A DNA stretch of 64,000 nucleotides from Tubulanus polymorphus (Eukaryota; Animalia; Nemertea), in contig NC_134030.1 of the NCBI RefSeq assembly GCF_964204645.1, positions 14,006,656-14,070,655 on the forward strand, in the 5' to 3' direction. The first letter of the stretch is position 1. The number at the start of each line of letters is the position of its first letter. The notes under the pieces were generated by a model. The model ran no database searches, was not told where the DNA came from, and saw nothing but the letters and a program-made list of their open reading frames with translations. Both the position numbers and the translations under genes were made by a program. Below are positions 21,178 to 44,953 of the stretch, one piece after another.

Positions 21178-21515
21178 GGGTTAACCTTAGTGTTCCTAAG
21201 GGCCTGTTGGGTGCATTGATAATTTGTACTAATCATTGAATATGTATACATAGGAGTAATTAATCTTAAAAATGTTTCTGCTGTGGGTTTCTTATCTTTC
21301 TTGCGGTAATCTCGTGAGATGTAACTCGTTTATAGAGATGTATTCCTTCCTCCTTCTCTTGGAGGGGGTTTAAAACTATTCTCCACCCTTTTTCTGGCTA
21401 GGATGCCACCTTATATACTCACTGACAAGTGGGTTCAATTCGGGTGAAGTTACTTAAGCTATATATATATATATATGAACTTTGTTTTCTCTTTTTCTAT
21501 ACATTTTCAGTGAAT

Positions 21516-22325
21516 ATGGACGTCCAGGACAAGTGGACGTGCCACGACTGCGGTCTTAGCCTTAGTAATACGTACAGGAAGTCGCGCCACCAGGTGTCTT
21601 GCACCTGGAAGCTTTTCGGTCGCAAAACGTATCAGGCCGGCACGGTATTCTCATGCCTTATGTGTGGATTTAGTAATCCGAAAGTGGCGAGGGTAATCAC
21701 ACATATATCAAAATCGCATCGCGACCGCGTTAGAAGGAACGGTAACACTTATGTCGGCTTGATTCGTTCGTGTGTGCCGGAGGGAGTGCCTCGGACGGTT
21801 TTCCCGGGCCTCCCTACCGCTAGTTTCGTGTCCGACGTCGGACTGGATGAGACTAGAGAATCGTCAGTGTCAGAACTCCCGAAGAAGTTCCCGTTTTTTT
21901 CGTTACCGCCGCTGCCGCCTCCGCCGCCGTATTCGCCGCCTCCGCCGCCGTATTCGCCGCCTCCGCCCATCGAAACACCTACGTTGTTCGATTGTCTGAA
22001 CATTCCGCTACCAGGACAAGCTGCGCTGTGCAGCTTTGATGTATCGACTGAGATCATTCTTGACGGCATTGAGGAACCTGCAAAGTCATCCTTACTCATG
22101 CGAACATCTACACCCGTACCAGCTGAAGACGCGGTTCCCGTGGAGATCAACCCTGCAGTACTTTCCGAACCTTCGTGCGCTGTCGGTAATTCTCCGGTCT
22201 CCGAGCAATGTGGCGCTGTTCGGCATGTTCACGATTTTCGCGGACACCACCTCGAGATATCGGTCCCGGTTGGAGTCCCGATTAACTGCCCGTTGTGTCT
22301 TCACCTGGTCAAATCTTTTGAATAA
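21516..22325 (+). CDS. ORF3 of element A: C2HC+C2H2 zinc-finger protein with Pro-rich linker and C-terminal HxH...CxxC (269 aa)
   Basis: CHDC-x12-H-x3-C and CLMC-x12-H-x4-H, PPPPPYSPPPP, HVH...CPLC. ATG lies 5 nt after a polypyrimidine-CAG acceptor (21509-21510). Confidence 0.85.
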   Translation: MDVQDKWTCHDCGLSLSNTYRKSRHQVSCTWKLFGRKTYQAGTVFSCLMCGFSNPKVARVITHISKSHRDRVRRNGNTYVGLIRSCVPEGVPRTVFPGLPTASFVSDVGLDETRESSVSELPKKFPFFSLPPLPPPPPYSPPPPPYSPPPPIETPTLFDCLNIPLPGQAALCSFDVSTEIILDGIEEPAKSSLLMRTSTPVPAEDAVPVEINPAVLSEPSCAVGNSPVSEQCGAVRHVHDFRGHHLEISVPVGVPINCPLCLHLVKSFE

Positions 22326-22379
22326 CCTTATATATATATATACTTTACCTTTGTCGCCTTTTCTGAGCGGGTCGCTCAG

Positions 22380-22395
22380 GGCTGGTGGGGGGCTT
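22380..22395 (+). other. Polypurine tract of element A
   Basis: GGCTGGTGGGGGGCTT immediately before the 3' LTR. Confidence 0.7.
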
Positions 22396-23866
22396 TGTAG
22401 CGGAAATTCGTTTCACTTCGTTCTGTTCTTTTTATTTTCCAGCTGCAGAGTCCTCCCCAGCTCAGTCTAAAATTCATATTAAATTCCTATTAAAAGTTTG
22501 TATGATGTAAAATAAAACCTTATAATGTATTTGTAACTCTGAGACAAGAATGTTTAATGCTTTGGACTTCGGTCTGGTGGATTAGAAACTATTTTTATTT
22601 CTATCTTAATGAAATATTGTATGATTTAATCTGAATTCAAAAACTGTACCTAAAGACCTTTTCTATGTGTTCGGGTCACTCCCGGTTTGTATTTTTCGAG
22701 TTAATGTGCCTTAATCGATGTTCCCGTGCTTAAATCGATAGTTTTATGCTGTGCTCTGTGCCCGAGATGGCGCCACTATACGGTTCTTAATTATATTGTG
22801 TGCTCGGGGTGCTTTGTTTTAACCAATTAGATGGGTTACGTCATAATCTGGGCTCTGTAAAAGGCAAAAATGTGCTTTATTAATTAGTCTCGGTGCACAT
22901 TCTTAGGTGTGTATTACTAAGATTTTGAACTATGGGGGGAGGGATTAATCTAATTTTCTTAGTAAGTCATACTTAGCACTGATTCTCTTTAAGTATTTCT
23001 TGGTCCTTATTCTCAAAGTTGTTTTTCTTCCAAGATGTTTTCGGAAAACAATCTTTCAGGGTTCAAGGAGGTTTTCTCCTTCGAATTATTCCCCGAAAGT
23101 ATTCTTCTTTCCGATTTCCTCTCTTGGTTTTTCCCTCAACTTATGAGTTTTCGGAGTAGTGACCATCTCTTACATAAACATAATAGGAAGAATGATTAAA
23201 TAAATACTTAACTGGAACTATGATTAAATATAGCGAAAATTCTTATCTTTATTAAGAGCACTTAGAGTTACATCTTCTTTAGCGTAAAACGAGCGCAGGG
23301 TTTAAGTAACTATTGTCGTAATGTTAGAGTATCTGAAATCTTTATTCCTAATACTATTGAATTCTGGTGCGAGTCGTGCACTTGTATTAAGGGCAATATG
23401 CCCTTGTTAATCTCCTCCTTTGGTGGCCGGTTGGCCATCTTATCTACCTTAAATGTTGTAAATAAGAGATAACCTCGAGGTTGTGTATATATTGTTCATT
23501 GTTTGAATATTTCCAAGAAATAATAAATAGTATTCAAGAGAATATTATCATATACATAAAATTCTAAATCTTTGCCTTTTTCCCTAAACTATTTTTGTGG
23601 TGTCGGATTTACTATCAATTGAGGAAAGGATTTTCTTGTGCATTTTTGGGATTTTGTGACACCATAAAATATTCTTGAAGAATCTTGTGGGTTAGGGCAT
23701 CATGTAAGTCTTCAAAAAGGGGAAGCATTGAGGGCACCCTCTAGTGGGAGAGGCCAAATATTGGTGAATGCTCCTCGTTTTATTTAGTTGGTATCTATTA
23801 TTCTTTTTGAAGCTAAACGCCTGATCAGGTCGGCTGTGGAGGCTGGAAATACTTGTAGCGCTGGAC
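22396..23866 (+). repeat. 3' LTR of element A, truncated (last ~530 bp missing)
   Basis: Matches 14078-15563 with a few substitutions and small indels, then stops at ...GCGCTGGAC. Confidence 0.95.
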
Positions 23867-23869
23867 TAA

Positions 23870-24925
23870 TTACTGATTTTTAAGTAGAGCGCAGAGTTTA
23901 AGTTGATAAAATTCACAGTAGACACACTGGTACTCTGAGCCTGCGTAGCCGAACAAGATCATATCTCCGTGTCGATGCAATTCTTTCCATGGTCGTTCTT
24001 CTGTTATCTTTCGATCTTCTTTGGTTTGCGTCGAACCGTCTCTCATATCGTTGTTTTGTTTAATCAGGGTAGAACTGATTTTTCTAAGCGGCATTGTCGG
24101 TATTGCATTGTTGGTGAAGGCACATGATTCGATAGATAATTCGGATTCTGTTGCACTCGATGATGATCCGTTGATCTTGGGTAGCTTTACACACGGAACG
24201 ATCGGTTTCTCCGCGGCGAATGATTTCAACTCGGGCACACACGGTGACTTAATATCGGCTTCGAGCAGCGGTTCGGTTGTTTGGTTGTCTTCTTCTATCT
24301 TTGACGCAGCAGACGTTTTTCTTTTAACGGAAATTATCCGCGCGGAACCATCCGGACGCGTCACTGTCGTTTTAGACAGTAACTGCAGCGGGCTTGGAGG
24401 CATTTCTTTCCTAATTTCCTCTAAAATTCTATGGAGATCGTCGTTCGTTGGAAATGAAGTTGTTTTATAATGTGGACTCTTTGGCGTCGGTATTTCCTTG
24501 GTAATTGTGGGAGTTGCGAGTGGGTTTTCTTCCTTAATTACTGTCGGTGTCTTCTGCCTTTTGCCGGTTGGAACCTTGTTCTCTTTTCCCGATTTCCTTT
24601 TAGTTGGATGAAGGATCGGGGTCTCTGGGCGACTTAAGCACTGGATCTCCGGAGGGTCAAATTCAAATTCATCATCGTCGTCTATCGCGACGAGTTTCAC
24701 TTTTCCGATGATGGATCTGGTATCTTCCGAATGTCTTCTGTTCGTTTTTCTAGCATGTTGTCGAATCAGGTCTCGACGTCCGTTCTTGTAACTGCAGAGT
24801 TTGCATCGATATTCATATCCCTGATGCGGCTTACTCTGACATTTTAAATCATGCGACTCGAGGTTCCTCATCGACGCGAAATCTTTCTTACAGTGGACAC
24901 ATAAAAATGGCGTTGTCCCGTGCAT
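23870..24925 (-). CDS. ORF3 of element B: zinc-finger protein (351 aa)
   Basis: CVHC-x12-H-x3-C and CKLC-x12-H-x4-N (last His lost), basic KRKSGK..GKRQK patch, C-terminal HRH...CVYC. ATG lies 1 nt after the acceptor ATACATTTCAG. Confidence 0.85.
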   Translation of the reverse strand: MHGTTPFLCVHCKKDFASMRNLESHDLKCQSKPHQGYEYRCKLCSYKNGRRDLIRQHARKTNRRHSEDTRSIIGKVKLVAIDDDDEFEFDPPEIQCLSRPETPILHPTKRKSGKENKVPTGKRQKTPTVIKEENPLATPTITKEIPTPKSPHYKTTSFPTNDDLHRILEEIRKEMPPSPLQLLSKTTVTRPDGSARIISVKRKTSAASKIEEDNQTTEPLLEADIKSPCVPELKSFAAEKPIVPCVKLPKINGSSSSATESELSIESCAFTNNAIPTMPLRKISSTLIKQNNDMRDGSTQTKEDRKITEERPWKELHRHGDMILFGYAGSEYQCVYCEFYQLKLCALLKNQ

Positions 24926-24951
24926 TCTGAAATGTATGATCATTTTCAAAG

Positions 24952-27900
24952 TTACAGAGCGAGTAGCCGTGGTGGTATAACTCTTCTCCCCGACCTGGTG
25001 TAAGTGGGTGGATCTGGACTGGGTTTCCGGAAGGTCAATTGCGGTCTTGTTTCATTTTCTTGCTCGTATAATTTAAGTCGGTCGAAATGCACTCGTTTAA
25101 TTTTCTCATCTTTGTGTATCTCATACACTACGTCATTCACTTTACGTTTGACTGTCCAGGGACCTTCCCACGGATGGTATAACTTTAGTGACATTCCCCG
25201 AGGGCAAGCGGGGTTATGAAGCCAGACTAATGCTCCGACAGAAAATGCGACTCCGGAGGCTTTAGTATCGTAGTTACGCTTCATTCTCCGAGTCCGAACA
25301 GTAGAATTGTGTCTTGCCAAATCGTGCGCTGCACGAATACGCTCTCTTAGTTCTACGGTGAACATATTTAAGCTACGAGAGCTTTCGTGAGGCGGGCCTT
25401 CATACATTAAGTCGATGGGTAGGCGAATCTCATGCCCGAACATCAGATAGTTCGGGGTGAATTTAGTCGAATCATGAACGGCCGATCGATAGGCCATAGC
25501 GATGAACGGCAATTGTTCGTCCCAGTCAGAGTGATTTTGATTCACGAACATTGACAAGCTATTAATTAGTGTCTTGTTCATTCGTTCGATCATGCCGTCG
25601 GATTGAGGTCTATAAGGGCAAGTTCTCGTCTTCTTAATTTCGAGAATCTTACATACCTCAGCCATGAGCTTAGACTCGAAGTTTGCCCCTTGATCGGTGT
25701 GCAATTCGAGGGGACACCCTAACTTACAGACGAAATGCTTTACGAACGCATCGGCGACAGTGAGCGCCTCTTGGTTCGGTATCGGAACGAATTCGACGTA
25801 TTTAGTGAAATAATCACCGATAACTAAAATATATGAATTACCATTATCGGTCTCAGGTAATGGGCCTAATATGTCCAGGGCGACTCTTTCGAGAGGTACA
25901 CCTGAACTTGAGGGTCGTAGTTCAGCCCTAGTTTTTCGAGCTGGACTCTTTCGCGTTTGACATTCGCGGCAAGTGACGCACCAATCACGAACATCTCTGG
26001 CTATGTTATTCCAGTAGAATCTATCGTGAATCTTATACAATGTTTTCTTGATACCGAAATGACCAGCTGTTTTTGTCGCGTGAAGTTGGTCGAATACATC
26101 TCGGTGGTACGGTTTTGGTAATAACAAGAGCGTCGACGTAGGCAAACCCGAACGCTCTTTTCTAATATATAGAACACCGTTGATAAGATGGAGTTTATCC
26201 CATCTAGCCCAAAGGAACTTTGTGGCTGAATTCTGCCCTGATACATTCCCCCAATTCGGCTTATCGTTACTCGGATTGAAATGGCGTATGGTCCACTCGA
26301 GGTCGGTGTCACGTTTTTGGGCTTGAGCAATAGAAGCGTCGTCCCAGTCTTCGCACGGCGAGAACTTTATGTGACATGCGCGTGCGATTTCAACCGCACC
26401 GGTCGCATTATATCGTCGCTCAGCCCTTTGACACTGCGAACATGACCGCCTCGACATTCCATCTGCGTTCGAGTGTAAGCGCCCTGGTCGATGTTCAATA
26501 CGAAATGCGAAACCTCCGAGTGTAGTTAACCAACGGGCTAGTTGACCCTCTGGCTCTTTGAAAGACATAAGCCACCGGAGTGATCCATGATCAGTTCGGA
26601 GGAGGAATTCTCGTCCTCCGAGATAGTGTTTAAAAGCCTTGATGAAGTGTACCACGGCAAGTAACTCGCGTTTCGTGACGCAATAGTTTCTTTGAGCTTT
26701 TGAGAGAGCCTTACTAGCATACATGATTACGTGCTCTTTGTTATCGCCGTGTACTTGCGATAATACTGCACCGATGGATTCGTTACTCGCATCGGTATCG
26801 AGAATGAATGAGAGTTTTGGGTCAGGATACGCGAGAATCGGAGCAGACACGAGCAGTCGCTTCAGAGCCTCGAAGGCGATCTGACAGTCGTTGTTCCACA
26901 AAAACTTCTTGCCTTTTTCGGTGAGTTTCTGAATTGGTCGGGCAATTTCAGCGTAACCTTTGACGAACGATCGATAATAGGATGAAAATCCTAGGAATGA
27001 CCTAGCTTCTTTGACACAGCCGGGGACCTTCCAACTAATGACTGCTTCGATCTTACTCGGATCGCATTTAATACCCTCTCCGGACACCAGGTGTCCTAAG
27101 AATGCAACCGAGGTCTGAAAGAAGTGGCATTTCCTAGGTTTCAGTTTGAGACCGGATTCTCGAAATCTCTGTAGGACCATTCTAAGATTTTTGATTGTAT
27201 CATCTAAATCGGATCCGAACACAATAACGTCGTCAAGGTAGATTAGACAGGCTTCGAATTGAAGGCCGTTCAATACTCGTTCCATGAGACGCTGGAACGT
27301 GGCTCCGGCGTTCTTGAGTCCGAAAGGCATTTTGACGAACTGGTATAACCCGTTATTCGGTATGGCGAAAGCCGTACGTTCTTTCGATTTCTCGTCCAAC
27401 TTTATCTGCCAATAACCGCTAGCCATGTCTGCGGTGCAGAAATAGCGGGTACCAGTGAGCGAGCGAAGAGAATCATCGATGCGAGGAAGGGGAAAGGCGT
27501 CGATAGGACAGAGGCTATTGACTTTTCGTAGATCGACGCAGAACCTCTGACTGCCGTCTTTCTTGGTAACAAGTACGACTTGTGATACCCAACTCGAACT
27601 AGAAGGTTCTATAATACCTTTTTCAAACATCTCTTTAACTTGTTTATTTGCCTCGATTTGCTTGTCGTACGCCATTCTTCGGGTCGATCACGGACCGGGG
27701 GTGACTCTCCAGTATTGACTACATGCTCTACCCCAGCGGCGGTACCGAGGTCGTAATCCGACTTCGCGAATACGTCCGCGAATTCACAAATCACGGCCTC
27801 GATTTTTCTTTTTTCGTCGGGTTCGAATCCCTTAGTACTTCTTTCGATCAGGTCTTTGACATGGTCTGGGATTTCGGGTTTACTAGAGTGGTCTGGCGAC

Positions 27901-28716
27901 CGACTATTCGTGACGTTATTCACTCGGAGTCCGTTATCTGGACAGGCAATTTTGGAAATCGGAGATATCTTCCCGAGTGTACAACCTCGAAAAACAGTTC
28001 TTGGTTGATCGGATAGATTGATTACTCGAATAGGAATAACCTCATTCTCCGTGTCTACGATTCCCTTAGCGGCCAAAATATGTTTTGATATAGTCTTCGA
28101 GACTGCCGGTTCCACGATAGCCCACTTCCCTGATGAAAGTGACTTTTCAGCAATACCGGGTAAAATTACTTCGCCCCCAGGCGGGACAGACACGTTCTTT
28201 AACGCCGCGACTCGGATGTCTTTATCCGGTGTCTTAATGGCACGTGTGTCAATGTACTGACGGCTTTTACTAACGACAGTACGACATTTCGGATAGATCT
28301 GACAATCGAAATGCGACAAAAAAATCCATGCCGAGAATACCGTCTTCGGTGATATCAGCTACGATCAGATCCCAAACTACTGTCTGGTCGAATATTTCAA
28401 TCTTCGTCGTGATCTTACCGAGCACATTTAGATGACTATTATTAGCCGAAATTAGCTTCGACTGGCAAGGCAATAATCCCGGTCTTTCTTTAGACGGGAT
28501 CTCATAATAACTACGAGAATTCAGTATGGAAGCGCAGCTTCCAGTATCAATAAGATAATTCATAGGAACATCGTTGATCTCAGCGGTATATTGTAACGAG
28601 TCCGAACTTCCGGATATAATTACCTTATTAACTTCTAATTCGACAGCATGCGAGAGATTTAGGGTTTTCTGAGCAGTCGATCGAACTCTCACTGCATCGA
28701 CTGCTGGGAGTTTCCC
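24952..28716 (-). pseudogene. pol: pol of element B (PR-RT-RH-IN; frameshifts ~28320 and ~27680)
   Basis: LIDTGS, YLDD, DTDAS, HATKTAGH...CREC, DDE and GPW motifs across three ORFs. Slippery GGGAAAC at 28716-28710. Confidence 0.95.
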
Positions 28717-29903
28717 GCCGAACCGTTCGAACCTCGAAGTCGTGGGCAATTCGACTTGAAGTGTCCGAACTCTTTACAGTGGAAACATTATACACGTGAA
28801 TAATCTCTCTTTGGCCTTGCGTCAAAGCGACTTCGTTCGTTAGGACGTTGCTGCGCTTGTAAAATGTTTTCGAATAACGAGAACATCTTCGAAAATTCGG
28901 ACTTGATCTCGGCCCTGAACTGTTCGACTCCACTGCCGACTCGAGCGCCATCTTTGACTTCTCGTACGAACTTCTTAGTTAAGCCATCGCGTTCGTCTTC
29001 GAGACGACGATAGCCTTCCAATTCTACCGCCATAGAGACTAATTCATTCAGGGTTGTACATCTACTTTGATATAAAGCCATTCGAAGTTCTCGATCGTCT
29101 AGCGCATCGAGGAAATGTGTCTTAATTAAACGATCTAGCTGTTCGGGAGGCATATCAGGGTATGCGAGCAAAGCTTTGGCAGAGAGGTCTTGCGACAATT
29201 CTCTGAGCGACTCCCCTCGTTTACGTCTTCGATTTCGTAATTCGGCTAAATACAGCTCGGCCTGTTGTCCAGGACCGAACCGACTTTCTAACGCATGGCA
29301 AGGAGTATCGAAATCGACTCTCTCGTCAGGTCGGAGAGTACAGGCTAGTTGGCGAGCTGACCCACGCAAGTGAGTGAATAAATACTCGGCTTTCATATAA
29401 CCCGTCCATCCATTTATGCGAGCTATGGAATTGAAGACGGTAATATAATCGAGCCATGACTCGTTCCCAGAATAATATTCTGGTTCGACTCTCCCGAACC
29501 CTCTCGGAGTTATAGGATTGGGTCTATACATCTCGAATTCTTGTTGGCGGGCGCGGCGAAAGATTCGAGGAGTATTCAAAAATGCGCCTTGGTCTTCGTG
29601 AACATCATCGGGTACACTTGAATCTTGCGGGATGTTTCGTGTCTTTCTCATCGTGGATCGTGGGTTTGAACGAGATATAGCTTCGTTCAAAGAGTGGAGT
29701 TCTCTCTCTATTAGGTCTCTTGAGGCATCGGGTTCAGCCCCCCTAAGTCTATTTTCCTCGGATAAAGGCAAAACAATAGAGTCGCCGCAGGCAAGTGAGC
29801 GTTCGCTCGATGGGCGGTCACTAGAGATTTTATCAGAGGCATTTCGACCGTCGGGGTTTTTCGTGGACAGGTCAAATTCGAGCGGATTGCTTCGAGTTTT
29901 CAT
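28689..29903 (-). pseudogene. gag: gag of element B (premature TAA at 28790-28788 just before the CCHC knuckle)
   Basis: 371-aa ORF. Reading through the stop gives CFHCKEFGHFKSNC...AGNSQQSMQ*. Confidence 0.9.
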
Positions 29904-30025
29904 TTTTAGCTTTCAGTTCCTGAATCGTGGACATAGAAATGCATGTAATATTCTTGTTGAATAAAATTCGACTTGTTACTTCAATTATGCGTTCAGACAT
30001 GGAGTATTCGAGCAAAAAAACGACG

Positions 30026-30043
30026 ATCCCACCGCTGCCACCA
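30026..30043 (-). promoter_or_regulatory. Primer binding site, tRNA-Leu (element B)
   Basis: Same 18-mer as the PBS of A, 3 nt from the LTR end. Confidence 0.9.
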
Positions 30044-31629
30044 ATTTGTAGCGGCATGGGATCGACAGTATATACTTCATTAAATCTTGGTAGCGAGAGC
30101 AGGTAAGTCCAGAATAGGTCCGCTACAGGTGGGTACGCCTAGGTCGATTCTGCCCCTGGAGAGGACAGAATAAGGGGTCAATGACCGCCCTAGGACAATC
30201 GTCGAAAAATACTATGCGATTTGCTAACTCGTGAGATTCGATTCGGTTTCCCGCCTAAACATAACTCTGACCAGTACAGTCGGTCGAATTTCTCAAGAAC
30301 CACAGCCGGAAGTCACCACCTTTCGTTACGTCGGCCATTCGTAATCGAATCGACTCCGACCGTAAATTCGAGAGAAACTAAAAATAGGCGATCGGTTTCT
30401 TCGACTATACAATTCAAGTGCAGTCTGAATTTTATTCCGGTTTCCATAAGCTCTACCGAATCCCACTGAATCTCGCGACAGTCATAGGCAAATAAGGCAA
30501 TCGCATTACTAGAATATCATGCTCGAATATATATATACTCCGAAAAATCGAACGCATAATCAAAAGAAGTAACAATTCATAGTTAAAAATGACATGTATG
30601 AATATTTATTGATTTATTCAGGTCGAGAATCGTGGCGAAATGAACAGGCTATTAGGATTTGACTAGGCCTCGGACCTCCGAGCGATCTCGGGTCGAGAGG
30701 CGGCAAGGGCGAATATCCGACTTCGAGAGAAACCCGCGTTGTCAAGACAACGCAGATTACCCGAGTCATGATTCGAGAGAATTCGCTCGAAGCTCAGGCG
30801 ATGAAAGTCTTCGAGCGAGAAAAGGTAGAGACTAATACTCGAGGCGAGTCCACTCGAAGTCGAATAAACGTAATTCATACGGGATAAAAGGCTATGATGT
30901 TCTTCCATTGCAGTGATCCTTGGTCGGATTCTCCTTTGATTTCGGGTTCAGACGAAGTATTCGAGCGGGGCCGGAGCCCTGTCCGAGGGACGTGGTTTGA
31001 AATGACTTATCGCATCATTCCGGGGTCAATACAGACCTGAATAAGGCAATTAGACTGTGCGTCTGGCGATTTTTAAGAGATCGATTATTCAGCGAGCGAT
31101 TACAACCTCTCTCAACGTGTCTCAAACACAGAATGTCAGAAATGCGGTTCTGACCGCTCTTAGATAGGCCGCCTTCTACGTTGATTGGCTAATAGGCAAA
31201 TTACTGCGCGAAAAAAAATGCCGGCGCACGCGGCTTTGGGTAGGCGTACATGACTGGAATTTTCGATGAACTATCTCGAAATCAATCCTCGTTTGGATAT
31301 TTGCTATTAAAAGAGCAGAAACCCTTCACGGAAAAGACTTGGCAATATCCCAGGTAAAAGGAACTATTCCGTAAAACGGCCGTCTACGATGAGGTGATAC
31401 GGCACTTCCGTATTTCAGCGATTTTGAATAGTGCGGCTCTGAATTGGCGAGTTTTCCTCAAAAGACGGATATAATGCTATCGCGGACTGGTCATCAGGTC
31501 TGAAGGTTGGTTCCATGGTCAATCTCGCCACATGACTATAGTACACTATCCGATGGAATAATAAGCTCCACTCCTCGACAAACTCGTTCCCGTGCATTTT
31601 TATCTCTCTGTTTCACACACACAGCCCCT

Positions 31630-34600
31630 CGGTTCCTGAACTTCGCTGAAAAAGCTGAAACACTGAAAAGCTGAAACGCTGAAATAAAAACGCTGAAATT
31701 TCAGGGAATTTCCGAAAAACGCCGAAATTTCAGGGAATTCCCGAAAAACGCTGAAATCGTGCTAGGTACCGACAATACACGTTTTGAAATTCTTTCCGGG
31801 CCGGTGTCCGCTGCCGAGTCCTGAACCGTCTTTTAGACTCTACCTTCGGTTACAGAGACATGCCTTGAGGTCGTCGTCATGTTCGACTTGATCGATTGCG
31901 GATTGCGTGGATTGTTAGATGTGTTTTTTGTTTTATGCGCATATACCGGTACGATCTAACAATGAAATTATCACTCCATTTGAATAAATTCTTAATTACA
32001 GTAATATTAATTCTCAATATTTTTTCTTATATTTGGTGATTTCTTCCAACTTATCATTGCCAAGTCTCATACAAAAGTAGTAGCTGAATGAAAGTACAGT
32101 AGTAAGGCTGAACCTGATAACCCAAATTAAGTGCTATCATGGAACTTATGACTACTTTGATTCTATTTTGGTGTGAATAAAGGTTCAACCGTCATAGTAT
32201 ACTGTACTTAGCATTACTACGATTGGGTGCCATATTTCTACAATCTCTTCAAGGAAGGAGTCTTGGAGTGTCTTTCGTTCCCGGGTAGGCATCCTCGCTT
32301 GCCAGGAGACCAGTATCGCTCCCAAACTCGCTTCCACCTGCCCCCTGGCCTCACGACGCGCGATTTCATTACCGGCGTTTTAGCGAATGACGTCATATAT
32401 CAACACGCGACAATACTTCCGTTTTCGCTACGTGTTCGCTGATTGGTCCATTTACCGGGAAATTCCATAGATGCCAAATGTCGTTTGTAACAAGCGCTGT
32501 GATTGGCCCGACCTGATTCTGGTCGTCTAGTAACGACTCGAGGTCAAGCGGTTCGGAGAACAGCTTTAGTCAAGTTGGTTCGAATCCCTTGACAGGTGAA
32601 GATGCCGGGTAGGGTACGGGGTAAAACCTGGTTTACTTTCTCTGTCTACTTGCTGGAGACTACTATCTGCAATGTATTGCAAGTTTTTATTTGTTTGGCT
32701 TATGAGAGTCGAACAACGTTTTCCCATACACAGGCTTGGCTTTAGTACTAGATGAAGGCTAGGCACTGCACATTGTGGATTGACTGGAACTCTAAACTCA
32801 CAAAATTAAACGAGTCAACAAGAAAGATCCAATAATTTGACGTTTGTCTAATTATATTATTTAACAGCTTAAAATAATACTTAACACATTATAAGAATAC
32901 ACAAAAGAAATCAGTTCTTACATTATATCAGAATCAATAGTTCGCTTAACTCGGGCTTGAATTCTGGTTCCATTGCTTTATATTCTAATGAAATTCACTA
33001 GCATACCTTAGAATATTGCTTAGCTTAAGATAAAAAATTTGGTACCAGGAAAACGGGGAAGTAAAGTGGGTGTACTGTACATCCCCAATTGACTTATTTC
33101 TCTCTGGTTGAATCAAGTTATTACTGAAATAGCATTCGAATAGCCATTTTGTTTTTAAAAATTGTGTCATTCAGCTATCCTGCTGCAAATTTCGCAGTTC
33201 AAGTTAACTAGTGCCATCTGATTTCTCAGTATCTCCAATTTGCACATTCTTAGCCCGAGTCTAAAAATAGAAAAAAAGTGCATTTAAAGTAGGAAATAAA
33301 AGAATAGTGGCTAACACACTCTGGAGATATAGCCTATGGGGTGGGCCTAGTTTGAAAGCACTGAGGTCCGAGGGAACAGCACTTAGTAAATAAATACTGA
33401 AATCAAACTTACAAAACACCCAATACTTGAGATGATGTACTTGACAAGAAGTGTGTCCAGCTGAGCAAATCAACTTTATCTATGACTCCTCCTTTTATAG
33501 ATACCGTAGTAGTCTAAAAATAAGAATCGGTACATTTTTCTAACAGTTGGTATGTCATTTAAAAAAAAAAAACCTATTATTATCACAACACAGCAAATAA
33601 ATTACAGTTGTTGAATGGTTTGCCCGATTTAGATTAATTGGTTGACGCTAATTAGTATGACCTATAAGTAGGGGCCTACTGCATGTCATTGGCGTCAATC
33701 CATTCCATTCCACGGTGAATTAAAAAGAAATTTAGTTAGATCCCTTTTGTCCAAAAGCTGCATCATTTATATAACTAGCTGTCAAATTTAATTTACCTCC
33801 TTCAGAGAATACCATAGGGCATTCCTTTACTTTCGCACCGCACTATGTTCCACTCTGTCTACGTCCTTCAAACTTATGTCACTGGTGTATTTTTGTATGA
33901 GGAATCTTATGGTGAAGTCCGTTTTTTAATATCTCCAACAGAAAATAAAATTCGCTTTTTTTTCACAGGTAATGGTCATCTCGTCAGCAATTATTTTTTG
34001 GTTGTGTTAAAAAGTCGTAATAGGATCAATTCATTTCAATTGATTTTATTGATACAGAAAAGTATGAAAAATATTTCAAGTATTCAACATCTAACAAATA
34101 ATGTTTGTAAATGTGTAACGTTGTTCATAAAATCCTAAAAATAAATTTACAATTTTCCTTAAATAGGTTGTTTTTCTTTTTGATATGGGAAAGTCACACG
34201 GGCGGCTACTGGGATCCTGGGCATCTCTTCTGTTTTTATACAATGTAACAAATGACTGAGTGACAGATCATGATCAAAGGACTTTTAGTATATATATATA
34301 TATAACAATGTATAAACCCACGGCAGTTCACTGCTGTGGGAATGAGATGAATGAGACAAACCCACAGCAATAGTTTAACAACCTGTGGAAAATGCCGCCG
34401 ATGCCATCAATTTCCAAAATGAATAAATACTGAAAGTAAAAATGCCCTCGCATCATACGTCTCAAGATGGCTCAAGCCGGAGGACAGTGGCCAATTTTAT
34501 CCGCTGTGACTCGACGAGAGGCACGTATATATTGTATATTTGTATATTTTCATTTTCTGTATCATGTATGTTTCTTAGGCATCATTGACCGTTTTATTAA

Positions 34601-35387
34601 TCCAATAATAATAATCATTTTTTCTATTCTATTCCAAAAATGTGTCTTTTTAACTGTTTCTGTCGGTAGTTAGTAAGACCGGAGGCCATAGTCCGACTTT
34701 TACTGCTTCCCAACATGGCGACCATTTGCAGCACGTAAAAACTGGAGGAAGAAAATTTTATAAAAAAGCGAATTTTATTTTCTGTTGAGAGATATTAAAA
34801 AACGGACTTCACCATAAGATTCCCCATACAAAAATACACCAGTGACATAAGTTTGAAGGACGTAGACAGAGTGGAACATAGTGCGGTGCGAAAGTAAAGG
34901 AATGCCTACCATAGTCCGTCGCCCATCAACGTGTTGACAAAAGAAAAGTTGCTTATAATCCTGTTTTATACATGAACGATAGAAGTAAACCATATTCTTG
35001 GAATATTGAGCATAGTGTTTAAGTTGGCTTGCACGGTTTGTGAATGGGTTTTCCTCATCATGCTGCCTGTATGCATTAAAAATCCGGATTTCAAGCGAAT
35101 TAATTTGTTCAACATGTGGCCCTCTAGAAGTATACTCCACACATACTGCCCATGCATGTCTCTGTAACCGAAGGTGGAGACTAAAAGACGGTTCAGGACT
35201 CGGCAGCGGATACCGGCCCGGAAATTATTTCAAAACGTGTATTGTCGGTACCTAGCACGATTTCAGCGTTTTTCGGGAATTCCCTGAAATTTCGGCGTTT
35301 TTCGGAAATTCCCTGAAATTTCAGCGTTTTTATTTCAGCGATTCAGCGTTTCAGTGTTTCAGCTTTTTCAGCGAAGTTCAGGAACCG
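31630..35387. mobile_element. Non-autonomous TIR transposon, MULE/Mutator-like
   Basis: ~235-bp TIRs (CGGTTCCTGAACTTCGCTGAAA...) with internal GCTGAAA repeats. 9-bp TSD ACAGCCCCT at 31621-31629 and 35388-35396. No transposase ORF. Superfamily inferred from TSD and TIR length. Confidence 0.85.
33818..34906. mobile_element. Nested MITE, Merlin-like
   Basis: ~145-bp TIRs starting GGCATTCC. 8-bp TSD TACCATAG at 33810-33817 and 34907-34914. GG termini with an 8-bp TSD fit Merlin; superfamily tentative. Confidence 0.8.
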
Positions 35388-38310
35388 ACAGCCCCTCTAC
35401 CATCAATGCCTAACCCCTGTTCGACCAACTGTGGGCGTTTTCCTTTGAAACATAAGCCTAATTGTAGAAGATAAGCATTAATCTATGTTAATGCTGCATC
35501 TTTATCATGAAACCTAAGAAAGATTATTCTATTATTTAGGAATCACGCTTTGTGACGAAGAAATTGGTTCTAGGCTATAAATTTTACGACTCAAACGAAT
35601 CTTTTCCTCAACAAAGCCGCTTTTAGTTTGATGCAAAATGAAATTTGCTTTTAAAATGTGTAACTAGGCCTAATCAAAAGGATATTTCAAAAGCAAACTT
35701 TGCCGGGCCAAGAGCCATATTGAATTCAATTTTTTCCGAACCATTATGCCTCTTTCATCATAACATTATTTATCCTATTTCAAGATCTTAGGCCTACAAG
35801 TAGAGAGAGGGCCTACGTCGGGTTCAAATCGGAATTTTATGATTTATTTCATTTAATTCCAGGTTTTCACTGTAGATTATCAAAGACATGTGGCGTTGTG
35901 GGAGTTCATAGTTGTTTGATGATCCATCATTTGTAAGTGTAAGGCTATTTGAGGGATTCGAAACCGACATTTTGTAAATTTTGTAGCTTTATTACGTTTA
36001 ATTCCAGATTATCATGACACGTTTCATTATGGGGGTTTGTCAGCGAGTTGGTATGCTGTCGACAGAAGTAGTTTGATAATTCGTTTCATGTAAGTAAACA
36101 GCTATTTGAAGGATTCGAAACCGAAATCTGTATTGTGAATTTTTTAGTTGTATTTTGTTTGATTCTAGGTGAATAGGACATGATTCATTTTGGGAGTTTG
36201 TACCCGAGTTTGTATACTGTCAAATGAAGTTTCTTCGTCAATTTGTCGTATGTAAGTATCAATCTATAGGTTATATAGGCCCTATTAGGTGTTCGATACA
36301 GAAATTTTGTGAATTCCTCAGATTTATTTTAATTTATTCCAGGTTGTTATCAGAAAAATATGTACTTTATTTCATAGGTTGGTCTTTGATTGAAAACTAA
36401 AAATGGATGATAGTTCTAAATTTGATGTTGATTCACATGACCAATCTAGTAAGTATGGCTCACTCGTCTTTTAGAATAAGAGACCTACTGCATTAATCCT
36501 TCAATTCAAGTTGCTATACAACCTTTTATACAGATATTTACCTTATCAATATAAACATGTTTTTGCCATTAGCCATACAATTCAGTAAAACTTTTCCCGT
36601 CCAGATTTTGAAACATCATTTGACTCAATTTTTCCTCCTAGAAAATTGCTTTAGCTCATTCCAATGTTCGCAGTAAAAGTGAATGTAGCATGTATGATTC
36701 CCATCCATCAATTTTGTCTTGTTTCGTATTTTTAGCGAAAATCTCGAAAAATCTTGACGTCGAGGCAGGTGGTGGCCAGACAAAGACATATTCTTGGGAA
36801 ATATTTAAAGGCGCATGGCAAACACACTTATTGTTCAATTTTTTCCTATCCTTATTTTGAAATCGAAGTATTGTAATAAACTATTGATTTATTTTTGTTG
36901 ATCAACGCAACTAGTTTTGTTGTTTTCTTTCTTAATTTACAAACTGACTTCACAGAATTTGATTATGAGTCAAGGATTTTCTAAATTTCTGAATGCTTTC
37001 TCTGGTTTTAAGATCAATTCAAATTCAATCTTCAAAATATTTTATTGAAAGAAATTCTACTGAAGACAGATTTTGAAATGAAGGATATATCCAGGCAAAT
37101 GATTATAGCAAAATCAACTGATGATCATCAAGGTGAAGTTTTCATTCATCTTCGGCTAATTTGTCTACCCCTGATGATTGAAGCATTTTGGTTACTCGTG
37201 CCAATTAGTCAGCCACAGTCGATTTTCATGCCATCTGACCTCTTTCCATCTGTAATTAAGCAATCAAATGTAAGAATTACTTAGGTAAGGAGCGAAATAA
37301 TATATAGATATCTTAGGAGACTATTTGAAATCATGAGTTTGTTGTGAAAATCTATTACTACAGTCTCGTAGAGCATAGACACCAAGCCACGTGGCATTGG
37401 TATTTTAAGGGCTATTCAGTTTACTCCAAAACAAGTCAATGATTAACATTAAAAAAGCTTCGTATCAAGGGTATGTCGACTCGTGACGCCCATGAATTAT
37501 CATCCCATAATTACAATGAAGCCAATTCTGCATGTACATTAGCACGACTGATTACTAATCCAAATATTGCATTACAAAAAAAAAAAATTACGCAAAACGT
37601 CAAGTACTTACAGCATCTGAGACAGTTGCGCTTAAGTTAGCGTGTTAAGTTACGTCTTTGGCTGTCAATGTCGAAAAAGCCTAATTTGAAACATACATTT
37701 GCGCACTGTGGTTTAATATTCCTGCAAGAATCCGCAAAGGAATTGAAGACCGTAGTGACTAGTTCATTCCACGAATAATAGCTGGAAAGAAAGTAATCAA
37801 AATAAATTGTCATGCACATTCAGTGTAAACCAGGCCATAACAAGCTGCTATTAAGGCATTCCACTGACTGGCTCTACCATTATATTTAGGGCCTAAATCT
37901 ATTCTAGGCGCATCCCCCAAAAAAGCTAGGCATTAATTAAAGAAATCATTTAATACATTCCCTGGTTAACGGATTCTCACCTTAAAATACATAAACTCCG
38001 CTGTCGTTGTCATCGATCCGAGTCGTCAACTGAACGCGGAAGTAAAATTCCGTGCGAAAATTCCTACAATTTCTGTCCATATCACGTTGATTTGACCCCG
38101 AAATCTTCAGGAAATGTAGCCAACGTAAATTGATTTACGAATAGAATTAATCAATTTTATTTTAGAAATCATGGTTTCGTGAAATTCATTAGGGTCCTAA
38201 AACTTGCGATAAATTTAAGCCGAAAATGATTTCAACCATCCACCATGTTGTTTCATTAATAAAACAATTATTGCGCGCCGGCGCTGTACTGTGATAATGC
38301 ATGGTTTCAC

Positions 38311-38370
38311 TAGGATTCGAACCCTCGACCTCTCAGTTGGGAGTCAAACACCTTATCCACCATGCCACAG
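38311..38370 (-). other. tRNA-like head (A box and B box), probable SINE fragment or tRNA pseudogene
   Basis: Minus strand reads TGGCATGGTGG...GACTCCCAACTGAGAGGTCGAGGGTTCGAATCC. No clean acceptor stem. Confidence 0.5.
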
Positions 38371-38619: not shown

Positions 38620-38734
38620 AATAATAATAATAACAATCAACAGAATTAAAAAAGGGTTTTCGACGAAAGTCAGAAAACCCTAATAATCACGCGAATTTCA
38701 ATAGGGTTTTCTGTGAAGCAACAGAAAACCCTAA
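38620..38734 (-). mobile_element. Two adjacent Helentron-type terminal hairpins
   Basis: (AAT)n followed by AGGGTTTTC...GAAAACCCTAA twice, resembling 13330-13413. Confidence 0.5.
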
Positions 38735-40020
38735 TAAACGCATTTCAGTGACAATGGCATGATTTAATTTTTTTGTAAACAGAGATGTGAAAATAACTCT
38801 ACAATATGCTTAAAACGGTTGCTTACTACAAATTACCATATTCCTTAACTTTGGCCCCAAAATACTGCACTTATGAAAATCGATATAATATTTGGATTTC
38901 ACCTGAAATATTGTTTTCTTAAAGTACTCTAATGAAGTAATCTTATTATATGGATAGTTCTCGAGGAATGGATTATAAGCAATATTTATTCAATTATGGA
39001 TAACCGTGACGGAGATGAATGGGTTCGTGGCGCCATATGTTATAGTGACGTCATAGAGGTCAGTTAATGGTCATTCAGCACTGCTGAGCAATGTAAGTGA
39101 AAGAGTTTTATCTGAAATTACAAAAAAATAGTATTTGTTGCATGAAACTCTGAAACAAAAATATTGTGAAGTACTAACTACAAGTTTTCACATACAGCGG
39201 AGAATGACCCTGTAATACTTAGGAAGAAATCTTTAGTGTAAAACATATAAAACTATTGAAGCCATGAGATTTAATGTAGAAATCTGACTTTTTTTAACTC
39301 AAGAAAAATCTATTCTCGTGTAATCGATAAAACAATAGGCTCTCAATATGTAATCAACGTTCCCAAACTCCCACGTTGTTTTTCGCAGAAAATGTTTTTT
39401 TTTTAAATTTAATCACGGGTCCCTTAATTCGCTCGAAGGTCTATCATATTTTGGGTGATTTTCTTTGGTCACGCCACCGGGTGCCTTCCTTCAGCAAAAC
39501 CTACATTTTTTACAATGTTGAACTTGGAAACAAATTTCTTGTGTAAAACATAAACTGTTAAAGCCGTTCGTAGAACATATCTGACGATACAGAAAGATTT
39601 ATTGTCGTATGAAAGATAAAACAAGCAAGGCTTTCAATTTGTAATCAACTCTCCCAAAGCATGTTTTTTTTTCGCAAAAAGGAATTCCTTTTCCATACAT
39701 GTATTTATTTGATCACGGCGAATCTTCGCTTGAATAGATCTTCGACATCTTGGGTGATTTTCTTTCGCCACGGCACACCGAACACGTGCCCCCGCAAAAC
39801 CTATGTTTTTTTACAACGTAGAATTCTATATAAATTGCCGAAAGGGCACTCGCCTTTATTTAATTCATTAAAACTCTGGCTGTGCGCTTCACCAAGTTTC
39901 GACTTTGACATATTAATAAGCGCACAGCGAGCGCCGAAGGCGCGAGCTGGAAGCGCAGCTCCTTAAGTTAATCGCGCGTATGAGGCAAATTCAAATTTTC
40001 TATATTTCTCCATACCGTCC

Positions 40021-41150
40021 GGGTCTGACTATTTCAGATGGCTGGGAGTCACCTTCATTTCGGTCTGCAAATTATACATTTAGACTTTACCTACGTATCT
40101 AAAATGGCGGACGATTCAACTTCATCTTCCGATCCGTCTTATTCTTGTCATAATTGTCATGATTTTATGGCGGTCTCAGCACTCATCAATGAACACGAAT
40201 TGAAGTCAAGAACTAAGTGGTGCGTCTGGTGGAAGGAAAAGATCTCTGAATATAGTGGTGGTATGTTTATCTTTGTCTATCTGAATCTAGTCAGTAGTCT
40301 TGTTAATTGTTTTCTGTTCTATCTATATAGGCCTATTGTACAGTATAATAACTTATAAGCTGATGAGTGTTGTGTTAAGAAAACACTTGTCGTGTGCAAC
40401 ATGCTTTTTTCTCTTTCACTTACTGCTTTTTGACTTAATGTTTTTGTCTAATACTCCATATAACATGTATATGATGTATTTTTGATAAAGATTATTGGGA
40501 TCATTACACAGCACAAATGTGGTGTCGATTAGTTCACATAAAAAATATGCTAATTATTTGAATATAGGAACATTTAAATCACCATATTTGTATATCAATG
40601 ACTTGTAATATTCACCATATTGTACTCAATGTCACCTAACATCATCTGCACCGTATGCACTATTAAAATGCTGTAAGGCCGTGTTGTAATCCAATTTTTT
40701 TTTTGTCAATCAGAACTATGTACATGTATATTTAAATTTTAAAATTGTGTAAGTGAGTGTGTGTGATTTATATCAGAACAATGTGGTGTTTATTCAAATT
40801 TAGAAATTTGTGAAATAAAAATGTTTGTATGGTACATATATGTTTATGGTTTTAGTTTATATTTTTCTTCAAGTTGAATGTAATTTGGGAGGACTTTTTA
40901 AGGAATTTCCTTTTGGAAAGCCGATCTCCTGATTGGAAATAAGTTTCTATTGGTCATTAATTTGAATTTCATTCAGACAAAAAATGAGAATTTTGTTTGA
41001 ACGAATTGCGCTGAAGGACCGAGTTCGTGGAACGATTTACGGGATTCGAACCCAGTGTATTGGGCTACGTTACATCGTAGGGGAAGTCTAAATGTATAAT
41101 TCGTTGACCGAAATGAAGGTGACTCCCAGCCATCTGAAATAGTCAGACCC
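40021..41150. mobile_element. MULE-like MITE
   Basis: ~65-bp TIRs GGGTCTGACTATTTCAGATGGCTGGGAGTC... 9-bp TSD ATACCGTCC (40012-40020, 41151-41159). Confidence 0.88.
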
Positions 41151-41237
41151 ATACCGTCCTTATCAAAAAGTGTAGTTTACATCCGGGACACATGGGCATT
41201 GGCTAAATCGCGGCGACGAAAATGACGGTCACGGACG

Positions 41238-43208
41238 TGTAGCGGATTTGGGTAGTAGCGTGGTCCAAATCCGTAGGCGTCCGCTACGGGGTCCGTCCCG
41301 GGTCACCTTACTTCGGGGAGTGAAGTAAAGAAGGAGCTGCCCTAAACTGCAGCTTCCCCGGGAAAAGGATTCATTCGTCAAAAATACTAAAAGTCGAGGA
41401 TTATCTGTTGTACGTAAAAAAGGTTTGTCAACTCCACTGTTGTTGCTCCTACTTTCCCCATGACTCCAGGTTATCTGGCCAGAATAACCACCCCCAGCCC
41501 CACCTCTTGATGGACCGCGTTCGGAGGATTTCACCATAAAAATATCCATCTAGGGCTCAGTCATGACTCCTTCCAAGTGCGTTCCGTTGCACAATATCGT
41601 CCCCCCGTACAATCTCGCAGGATATCTCGCAACAACTAGTCTAGACCTCACATATCTTCAACCTCACAGTCTCGAACTAATAAAAACAAAACCACGAATG
41701 ATGCGACTCTCCTCTCCTCATGTTCCTTCTTCAGACGTGCCCAGCTTTCAAAAACATAACAGACTCGCCATGTAGAAAATATATGTACAATAGCCATGTC
41801 ATTAGGCCATTTATTAGGTCGATAAATACAGCATCAACAGGACATTTCCATAGTACAGGACTATGAAAAAAATGCCTACAAACTGCTCTCAACCTCGCTC
41901 TAAGAGGTTTAACCAATTATTATAGATACATGTATTGCGAAAATCGCAATAAAATATCATGGTGACAGATGGAAATCGCAGTATCAGCTTCAATAGGCTA
42001 TCAAAGCTGGAGAGAAAGCGATTAAGTTCACCCAGCTTCAGAGTTGAAGCAAGGAATGCTTCAGATGCTTTGAAATAAGGATCTCAGGTAGAAAGCTTCA
42101 AATCATGCTTTCAGACGACTGCCAAAGTAACTATTCAGCTAGGCTGTATAAAATTCGTAATGAAGTTTGAAGCATCACAAAGCTGGAAAGCTTGATGCTT
42201 TAAGAAACGTGCTTCGCATCACAAAAGCTGAGATCTTTAGTCTATGTACACGATAATTCGAATCTTCTCTATCTACATGATAATTGTAGTTGAAGCATCT
42301 AAAAAATGAAAGCTTCAAAGCATCCTTCATGCTTCACGGGAACATGCTTCACCATAAAGTTATTTGATTCTATCTACAAACATACGATACTTCACATCGA
42401 TTATAGCTGAAGCATCTTAAAAGTGAAAGCTTCAAAGCATCATTGCTTCACCATAATAAAGTTGTTTCATTCCATCTACATGCGATACTTCATGACGATT
42501 AGTTGAAGCATCTCAAAGCATCTCAAAGCTGAATGCTTCAAAAGTAAGGGTCTGGAAAACGATTCCCATATGTCACCATCCATGACGAAATAGCTTATAA
42601 TACGCTGTCGTTAGAAATATAATTTAATTCTAACCATGTTCTATGCAATTGCTCATCGAATAAAGGTAGTCAGTCAGCCGATCTTCAAATAAATATCTTC
42701 AGTTTGCTTGCTTTATAACTTGACGTAAGTTGACAATCAAGTTGTTATTACTGAGCAGCCGAACTGTCACACTTATATAGAGGCGCGGCGTGACGTCACA
42801 ACAAAAACAAAGGCTCTAATTGGCCGAGAGACGCGAAGCATGACGTCACGCAACAACAAAAGCCGCGATTGGCTAGAAAAACACGTGCAGCGACGAGCGC
42901 ACAACAACAAAGGCTGTGGTTGGTTGAAAAACCGCAGCGAGGCTCAGCTCTGCACATAAATTATTGAAACACGGGAATCGAACCCGCACGGATAAATATT
43001 ATGAAAACCGCAAGAACTACGCGAATAGAAGTGAAAATAGAAGTCCCGCGACAGAAATAAAGGTAGATAAATCACTCAAATGTGAATCTATCCACCCCGC
43101 GCCTATATGGTTTAATTAATACAACGCGACAGGAAGGCAAATGAAGAGAGGGGAGGACACCGAAGCGAAAGAAAACAACAAATCAAATCAACATCAATTT
43201 TCGCTACA
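41238..43208 (-). repeat. 3' LTR of element C
   Basis: TGTAGCG...CGCTACA termini. Adjacent to the PPT AGAGGGGGGGGCAT. Confidence 0.95.
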
Positions 43209-43500
43209 ATGCCCCCCCCTCTAGCCCTTTGCCTGTACATAAAAGATAAAAGGCAATGGGCGAAAATGCCCAAGAAAATTGCCAAGAACACTACAAAATA
43301 CAAGAGAACGTCCGAATCCGATCTACGCACTAATTGAACACTAAAGCATACTAATTCTCTACTAATACTCTACTAATACTCTAACTCGTATACATATACT
43401 AACTATACTAATATATTACAATACTCACTAACAACGTAACCGTACTAATAAAGAAGATGAGATAAAACTATATAACGCGATAGAAAGAAGGTCTGGAAGA

Positions 43501-44361
43501 TCACTCTTCACGGCGACGTTGATGAATCTCCCGGCAGATGTTGCAGAGTTCGCACTCGATGTCGTGGGTCTTCGTAAATTCGGTCTTTATCTCTGACTCA
43601 AACATAACATGAGTGTGTAGCTTCTGTCCCGTCTTTTCGGCGAGTCGTTGAGAGAGTCCAGCTATGTCTCGGCACATCATACAGAATAAACATTGAGGTA
43701 AATCGTCTGGGTGGTGCATGATTTCGATAGTGGACATGTACATAGAATGTACATGTTTCTTGGCATTCGGATGATGATAAGTTAGTTCTGATGACGGAAT
43801 GACGGAGGGTTGAGGAATAATGACTGGCTTCTGTAATTCGGATGACGGAGTGGCAGCAGGTCGAGAAATGGTCGCAGGTTTGACGGCTGATGATGGAGTG
43901 GTAAACGGAAGTGAGGACGTAGCTAAAATATTGTCCATCACTGGATTCTTCGTGACGACACGACGTTCAGGCGTGACGGCTGCCTTCAGAGTTGATGGTT
44001 CGCCTCGCTTGGCTATCTCGGTCGCAACAAAATTCAAAAATGAGGTCTTCGGTGGCGGCGGACCTGACACATCTGGAAACACTGGCTCCGAAATAGACAC
44101 GTCGTCAATTGGTGCTAAATCATCTGATGTGATCAACTCCGAAATACTTCTACCAATAGTATTGTCACGATGCTTCTTCTTGATATGTGTGCGGGTGGTG
44201 TCATATGCTTTGGACGAGTAGTTGCAGATCTTGCATCGAAAACTTTCGTTCTCACGATCAGGGTTTTTATCGCATACTCGCAGATGTCTGCTTCGACTCG
44301 TCGATATAGAAAACCTGCCATTGCAGTACTTACATGACCATTTTTCAACTTCCGACTTCAT
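43501..44361 (-). CDS. ORF3 of element C: zinc-finger protein with duplicated C-terminal HxH...CxxCxxC module (286 aa)
   Basis: CKYC-x12-H-x3-C, CKIC-x12-H-x4-H, HVH...CLFCMMC and HTH...CELCNIC. ATG lies 4 nt after a CTAAT...TATTTTTATTTTCCAG acceptor. Confidence 0.88.
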   Translation of the reverse strand: MKSEVEKWSCKYCNGRFSISTSRSRHLRVCDKNPDRENESFRCKICNYSSKAYDTTRTHIKKKHRDNTIGRSISELITSDDLAPIDDVSISEPVFPDVSGPPPPKTSFLNFVATEIAKRGEPSTLKAAVTPERRVVTKNPVMDNILATSSLPFTTPSSAVKPATISRPAATPSSELQKPVIIPQPSVIPSSELTYHHPNAKKHVHSMYMSTIEIMHHPDDLPQCLFCMMCRDIAGLSQRLAEKTGQKLHTHVMFESEIKTEFTKTHDIECELCNICREIHQRRREE

Positions 44362-44418
44362 AGTACTGGAAAATAAAAATACATGCGAGTATTAATTAGC
44401 AGCCTGAATTGCTAAGGC

Positions 44419-44940: not shown

Positions 44941-44953
44941 TGACGATTTGAAT

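Follow-up and report, generated by a model that had tools for sequence, protein, structure and literature searches.

A 64-kb stretch of the genome of the nemertean Tubulanus polymorphus (contig NC_134030.1, positions 14,006,656–14,070,655; hereafter the window) contains, among satellites and DNA transposons, three Gypsy-type long terminal repeat (LTR) elements, designated A, B and C, each of which encodes an additional open reading frame (ORF3) in the env slot. ORFs in this slot are normally env and are made from a spliced subgenomic RNA; other extra ORFs occur there too, to our knowledge nearly all of them without an assigned function. ORF3 lies between the integrase and the 3′ LTR, has a four-part layout that includes two zinc fingers and varies mostly silently, and the same slot is filled in related elements. 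ORF3 is very probably a functional accessory gene, and its product is likely to act, one way or another, as a nuclear regulator of the element that encodes it.

ORF translation placed ORF3 at 21516–22325 on the forward strand in A (269 aa) and on the reverse strand at 24925–23870 in B (351 aa from the ATG at 24925; another in-frame ATG lies at 24943) and 44361–43501 in C (286 aa), as given in a preliminary description of the window made from the sequence alone. The position that it had reported for ORF3, upstream of the polypurine tract in A and C, is borne out by tracts at 22379–22392 and 43212–43222, respectively, and the protein architecture is also as described. The first finger is C-x2-C-x12-H-x3-C (CCHC) in all three proteins (residues 9–29 in A and 10–30 in C). 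The second is C-x2-C-x12-H-x4-H (C2H2) in A and C (residues 47–68 and 43–64); in B the last His is replaced by Asn, with a His three residues later. A linker rich in Pro, Ser and Thr (30–38% of residues across the three) leads to a C-terminal HxH-x(14–18)-CxxC module, with 18 intervening residues in A (237–261) and C and 14 in B. One correction is needed, as ORF3-C possesses two HxH-x18-CxxC modules (203–227 and 249–273), which can be aligned with each other (E value 1e-5). In 20,000 residue shuffles per protein, the N-terminal finger motif arose 0, 1 and 0 times for A, B and C, and the C-terminal module arose within the last 50 aa 5, 1 and 6 times.

No membrane segment is apparent in any of the three proteins, the highest 19-residue hydropathy values being 1.37, 0.54 and 0.68, and Pfam returned no env family, although the same scan detected Baculo_F env in two other loci (L218 and L220). 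The product is not Env, as had been claimed, and an env reading is ruled out by these two results. The Pfam match of ORF3-A was to a ZNF462-type C2H2 zinc finger (E value 2.9e-5, below the curated cut-off), and finger matches in general fell under the curated cut-offs; finger 1 of A and C lacks the usual core Leu. When the finger pair was compared with solved structures, which gave 167 sequences at E≤10, the best matches were classical DNA-binding C2H2 proteins, headed by Aart, PRDM9, ZNF568, CTCF and Zif268. Thirty ORF3 proteins were examined, and a tally over their 24 fingers of standard spacing gave Arg at helix position 6 in 15, Lys at the backbone-contact site in 12 and Phe or Tyr at the core site in 17, while helix positions −1, 2 and 3 vary freely. 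Because the finger residues resemble the classical ones, basic clusters occur in all three ORF3 proteins and a membrane segment is absent, the evidence suggests a nuclear protein that binds nucleic acid.

The C-terminal module was less informative. A model of it (46 aa, predicted local distance difference test score (pLDDT) 73.6) shows a hairpin bearing HxH followed by a helix that begins at CxxC, making a single zinc site plausible. Foldseek found no match to the model at E≤0.001 in PDB or BFVD, a result that excludes nothing for so small a domain; the best scores were VIA (Z 3.7) and one Pfam row (E value 0.078), and a known fold may well escape detection at this size. The single-sequence fold of the whole of ORF3-C reached a pLDDT of 41.8, and the ESM Atlas returned generic zinc-finger clusters for ORF3-C, with no usable match for its C-terminal part.

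Elements A, B and C are well diverged. Their LTRs had been described as failing to align, and BLASTn of the A and C LTRs, together with the part of B's that was examined, gave only one 21-nt chance match. The gag proteins are 46–55% identical and the ORF3 proteins 21–27%. The integrases of A and B group together (SH-like approximate likelihood ratio test (SH-aLRT) 99 in a 47-row tree; 97, together with one unnamed protein, in a 90-row tree), and element C could not be placed by integrase. Given the shared four-part layout and the grouping of the A and B integrases, descent of ORF3 from a common ancestor is supported for the three elements. The contrary explanation, that three unrelated host zinc-finger fragments were captured separately or are carried as neutral cargo, draws on pairwise BLASTP similarities (E values 2e-8, 1e-7 and 0.004) that are significant over the fingers only and on profile matches that are mostly poly-finger proteins (see below). 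However, the HxH/CxxC tail occurs in all three window proteins and in none of the other 50 of the 53 ORFs screened, the position is the same in each element, the type of ORF3 tracks the integrase subclade and ORF3-C varies mostly at silent sites, so that this explanation is largely refuted and we regard it as very improbable.

The selection estimates cover family C and one related family (L017–L020). The variant table for ORF3-C comprises the 40 best-supported differences (223 more exist), 24 of which fall within ORF3. Sixteen of these 24 are silent and 8 are replacements, with 18 at third positions, giving a ratio of replacement to silent polymorphism (pN/pS) of 0.15 (binomial p 5e-6, changes from one diverged copy not being independent). 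In the L017–L020 family, the corresponding divergence ratio (dN/dS) over whole sequences is 0.19 (L017/L019) and 0.17 (L017/L020), so both families lie well under 1. Some copies of ORF3-C have frame-breaking indels, and dead copies therefore exist. The DNA runs covering A, B and C contain many variant positions, implying further copies of each family. In all three elements gag or pol is disrupted while ORF3 is intact; ORF3 is also the smaller target.

We searched for ORF3 beyond the window. A word-based protein search found no relative among 651 candidates with ORF3-C as query and none among 4135 with the three-way ORF3 alignment. The profile search recommended in the preliminary description fared only partly better: a hidden Markov model returned 1036 matches at E≤0.001, mostly poly-finger proteins, and among the best 150 there were 24 with a CCHC + C2H2 pair and none with the C-terminal module, while inspection of eight matched sequences identified one clear, decayed relative of ORF3-C (P0160, 46% over 106 aa). 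Loci were therefore gathered by integrase instead. They came from bacterial bins and metagenomes evidently containing eukaryote DNA; bins with bacterial titles, including G001 (109 integrase matches), are rich in Gypsy elements, most likely through contamination from host animals. Searches of viral contigs returned none and two, the latter distant. The nearest pol proteins are 41–48% identical, the named ones deriving from spider, eel, limpet and beetle.

The first set comprised 67 loci that extend for 900 nt or more beyond the integrase; 18 of them have a same-strand finger ORF after the integrase, compared with 6 on the opposite strand and a mean of 1.3 (maximum 5) in shuffles; one family supplies 4 of the 18 and 4 of the 6, and one case (L061) looks like chance. 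A held-out set gave 18 of 41 loci, with 2 on the opposite strand and a shuffle mean of 1.2 (maximum 6). Its sources included 70 loci chosen among the 109 matches of one assembly, 40 of these 70 being hand-picked for downstream length; 11 loci were removed because they were duplicates or had been used before, and 40 of the final 41 come from one assembly. Wherever both LTRs are present (L016–L020 and L022), ORF3 sits inside the element, before the polypurine tract. Thus, about a quarter to two fifths of the related loci examined carry a finger ORF3, which is not a curiosity of one genome.

Carriers are clustered on the integrase trees and scattered over a broad Gypsy branch; they do not form one clade. 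On the 90-row tree, the 30 carriers need 17 gains or losses, against 25.1 in shuffles, with at least 9 forced by well-supported branches; on the 47-row tree, 11 changes against 14.0 (26/500 shuffles) make the clustering marginal. Because broken copies were scored as absent (L016, for instance, has a frameshifted finger), these counts of changes are inflated, and the gene may have arisen early and been lost many times. The 18-nt primer binding site shared by A, B and C, which we take to be of the tRNA-Leu type, does not mark carriers either, since L001, L007 and L046 have it without a zinc-finger ORF3, and the carriers L017–L022 have a different one. Of the ancestral accessory gene of a tRNA-Leu-primed clade that had been proposed, the selected, non-env, element-owned gene of common descent in A, B and C stands; the single tight clade was rejected on the integrase trees. 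The nuclear regulator that had been proposed as its product would suit the anatomy of ORF3.

The ORF3s of the relatives repeat a layout in which one or two fingers at the N terminus are followed by a disordered linker and a tail that differs between lineages, and tail types track integrase subclades. In L012 (7326–9089) a finger is joined to a BTB domain, a usual partner of DNA-binding fingers; in L145 (4506–7262) it is joined to a superfamily 1 (SF1) helicase; and in L122 the tail is Arg/Ser (RS)-rich with an unnamed domain common to L021 and L053. A TatD tail passed Pfam in 10 of 27 ORFs scanned. A subclade (L193–L195, L199–L201, L203, L204, L208, L209 and L211) has ORF3s of 500–900 aa with a C-terminal TatD nuclease domain, several of them with a zinc finger upstream. 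The slot is occupied by a PHD finger in L044 (4559–4954), by a product that appears SGNH/GDSL-like by eye, with no Pfam match, in L005 (5921–6775), and by a Baculo_F-type env in the distant relatives L218 and L220. The HxH/CxxC module had no real match in five contaminated assemblies.

Two relatives bear on the idea that ORF3 acts together with integrase in integration targeting or chromatin tethering, as a counterpart of the chromovirus chromodomain that is encoded by a gene of its own. In L049 (1194–1997) and L170, whose integrases are sisters (SH-aLRT 100), the integrase tail reads in frame and with no stop into an ORF with the CCHC + C2H2 pair, and the PHD finger of L044 would also suit such a role. 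The fusion may be incidental, however, because an acceptor also precedes an internal ATG in both loci; in A, B and C, pol ends in a stop before ORF3, and the two available target duplications (CGTC and ATAT, n=2) share no site. We consider tethering improbable.

We tentatively favour a role for ORF3 as a DNA-binding regulator of the LTR of its own element, a reading that is possible but that we would not call probable. If a donor in the LTR or leader were spliced to an acceptor just before the ORF3 ATG, the resulting message would encode a protein whose motifs suggest a nuclear location. Its two N-terminal fingers would bind the LTR DNA of the element and raise or protect transcription. By analogy, the fingers may serve as the address, and the disordered linker with the HxH/CxxC zinc module as an effector that recruits host co-factors; a BTB, RS-rich, coiled-coil-like, TatD or helicase tail could be the effector in other lineages. 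If the protein of each family recognized the LTR of that family, diverged as these LTRs are, free variation at helix positions −1, 2 and 3 would be expected.

Candidate splice acceptors, each a pyrimidine tract with CAG, lie 5 nt before the ORF3 start in A (21496–21510, forward strand) and 4 nt before it in C (44366–44380, reverse strand). An acceptor falls within 20 nt of the ATG in 9 of 18 ORF3s of the first set (1.9 expected), by a rule fixed after that set had been inspected, and in 5 of 18 held-out ORF3s (1.2 expected, P 0.003). Donor-like sites are present in A at 15401 in the LTR and 16194 in the leader, and in the LTR of C, with none clear in B. The splicing that had been assumed for ORF3 is thus a prediction backed by enrichment of acceptor motifs before start codons, and translation from a spliced subgenomic RNA is likely on these motifs. 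By analogy, an internal promoter is possible, such a promoter having been reported for the Tor3b/4b env, with no splicing in some Tor elements, in the portion of that study available (PMC4402516).

Besides the late fixing of the acceptor rule, several points weigh against a DNA-binding regulator. The acceptor of ORF3-B is weaker, with CAG 1 nt before the ATG at 24925, and fails the strict rule that A and C pass. DNA binding may be weak or absent, because finger 1 is CCHC, the inter-finger linker exceeds the canonical length and the core Leu is missing in A and C; C2H2 fingers also bind RNA and protein. The RS-rich (L122), TatD and SF1 helicase (L145) tails of relatives point to work on RNA, and in L049 and L170 the fingers are in frame with the integrase. 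A repeated word that would suit a binding site occurs 10 times in the LTR of C, where none of 50 shuffles exceeded 6, but by the same count none stands out in the LTRs of A and B. Finally, in the available text on CERV, which comes from the Ty3/Gypsy element Cer1 of Caenorhabditis elegans and is the only tested env-slot regulator of an animal Gypsy element in the literature consulted, it is dispensable for transcription and needed for RNA export (PMC10309623).

CERV also gives a role in RNA export, which the preliminary description did not list, the best experimental precedent, by analogy, of the roles considered. ORF3 would then act on RNA in the manner of Rev or CERV, binding nascent full-length RNA, promoting its export or stability and balancing splicing against gag-pol expression. 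The enrichment of acceptors implies that unspliced RNA must escape nuclear retention, and CERV, as far as the accessible text goes, occupies the same slot, is spliced, nuclear and Cys-dependent, and is needed for export (PMC10309623). The RS-rich, TatD and helicase tails fit such a function, as does a 200-nt stretch of LTR A (14678–14877), after a TATA-like site, that folds below 15 mononucleotide shuffles (z −6.3), although this is one window of 26 tested and the shuffle control is lax. On the other hand, ORF3 has no apparent likeness to CERV in sequence or layout (517 aa, H-M-G domains and a C4 loop), and its fingers have residues usual in DNA-binding fingers. We rate this alternative as rather unlikely.

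A further alternative is that ORF3 antagonizes host silencing (piRNA or heterochromatin) by binding protein, for which no site on the element would be required. Fast divergence outside the zinc ligands (the 21–27% identity noted above) and the long disordered linker agree with this, and a BTB domain could recruit a cullin ligase, as the tail of L012 might. Yet finger residues of the DNA-contact type are conserved although such a role would not need them, and no known antagonist domain was found in Pfam, ESM Atlas or structure searches, so we hold this alternative, too, to be improbable.

Regulation of the element's own LTR by ORF3, if correct, would fit a wider picture, more speculative still, in which the animal Gypsy elements of a broad and old branch are ‘complex’ as that word is used of retroviruses, with a spliced modular trans-regulator in the env slot that combines a finger address coevolving with the LTR and an exchangeable effector. 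Transposons would then encode a widespread class of transcription or anti-silencing factors that has been overlooked and from which host zinc-finger genes could have been drawn. Should ORF3 regulate the LTR or RNA of its element, a Tas- or Rev-like factor would come with many invertebrate retrotransposons, which bears on escape from silencing. Some zinc-finger, BTB and TatD genes annotated as host genes in invertebrates may be retrotransposon cargo.

The Pfam scan gave a pol order that runs from protease through reverse transcriptase and RNase H to integrase in A and B, whereas C retains the protease and the integrase tail only. A and C have TG...CA LTR ends, a primer binding site and a polypurine tract, as is usual in Ty3/Gypsy LTR retrotransposons; B has a primer binding site and part of one LTR only. 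Element A (forward strand) begins with a 2.0 kb 5′ LTR with TG...CA ends (14078–16097), 98.3% identical to the 3′ LTR and 97.3% identical to a solo LTR of the same family (50014–52074, reverse strand) that has a 4-bp target duplication, ATAT. The primer binding site follows (16100–16117), identical to the 18-mer after the LTR in B and C, and then gag and pol, split over several frames (16391–21177). Downstream of ORF3 and the G-rich polypurine tract, the 3′ LTR (22396–23866) is truncated and fused to the end of B; LTR sequence continues past 23866 in 116 reads of a DNA run.

Element B (reverse strand) is cut 3 nt past the ORF3 stop, at the join with the truncated LTR of A, and has lost its polypurine tract and 3′ LTR. 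Its gag and pol (24952–29912) are split over several frames, with reverse transcriptase to integrase open for 911 aa. The primer binding site is at 30026–30043, and the 3′ part of the 5′ LTR at 30047–31628; the LTR start was not located, and an element with terminal inverted repeats (TIRs; 31629–35388) adjoins.

Element C, also on the reverse strand, is flanked by the 4-bp target duplication CGTC. Its 5′ LTR (47924–49892) has a TATA-like site and donor-like sites at 49328 and 47997; its 2.0 kb 3′ LTR (41238–43208) is 98.1% identical. TGAAGCA/TGCTTCA words in both orientations form an array 3′ of the TATA-like site (49212–48664, and at the corresponding place in the 3′ LTR), derived in part from a 116-bp duplication. 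The primer binding site (47903–47920) precedes gag (46736–47731), which is split by a TIR element at 44951–46735. Nearly all of pol is lost, a protease remnant being fused through an internal deletion to the last integrase codons (44419–44970), with the integrase tail stop 57 nt before ORF3-C.

The TIR element within gag of C is very abundant in the genome (depth ~2500, against ~30 alongside). Like those at 31629–35388 and 33818–34906, it has long inverted ends. Elsewhere in the window, positions 1–6700 hold an 89-bp satellite whose higher-order periods are 267 and 356 bp, and a broken transposase matching DDE_Tnp_1_7, which we take to be of the piggyBac type, lies at 62214–63929 on the reverse strand. 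The word TAGGCCTA, common in echinoderm DNA, occurs in 31 copies over the whole window, which would agree with a host among the marine invertebrates.

Among known systems, foamy-virus Tas, HIV Rev and plant VANC are element-encoded trans-regulators of their own expression. They provide the functional model for ORF3 but belong to other element classes. CERV of Cer1 shares the slot, but the text available describes five exons whose frame is shared with gag, together with H-M-G domains and a C4 loop, no C2H2 finger and no homologue outside nematodes (PMC10309623). ORF3 has its own ATG, the CCHC + C2H2 pair and the HxH/CxxC tail, a layout that differs from that of CERV. The bdelloid rotifer elements Juno and Vesta have an exchangeable, family-specific ORF3 in the env slot, typically from spliced messages, with products (GDSL esterase, DEDDy exonuclease, transmembrane or coiled-coil) unlike the ORF3 of A, B and C, in the sections available; neither ‘zinc’ nor ‘finger’ occurs in the accessible main text (PMC5408684). 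The env of errantiviruses and of Oikopleura Tor elements occupies the same position as ORF3, with an acceptor upstream of the ORF (PMC4402516, in part), whereas ORF3 lacks a membrane segment and an env family match.

Among open-access full texts, none that we found describes an ORF3 of the C2H2 type for animal Gypsy elements, although supplements, subscription papers or entries in Repbase, Dfam or GyDB may already include such ORFs. Neither ‘ORF’ nor ‘zinc’ occurs in the available text of mollusc and annelid surveys (PMC6238403 and PMC8556966), two further papers offered, in the portions available, no marker usable for naming the Gypsy clade, with Barthez, Osvaldo/Gmr1, MolGy1-16 and Cigr-1 among the candidates (PMC4746887 and PMC2774666), and two others describe different accessory products in theirs (PMC11952523 and PMC6338049). 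The closest likeness in the fingers themselves is to classical C2H2 factors (PF00096 and the ZNF462-type PF23225), which have the same finger spacing, aromatic core and frequent Arg at position 6, but ORF3 has two fingers only, the first ending in Cys, with a non-canonical linker, and lies inside an LTR element. Non-env ORF3s were already known; the zinc-finger ORF3 is a real and widespread member of that company.

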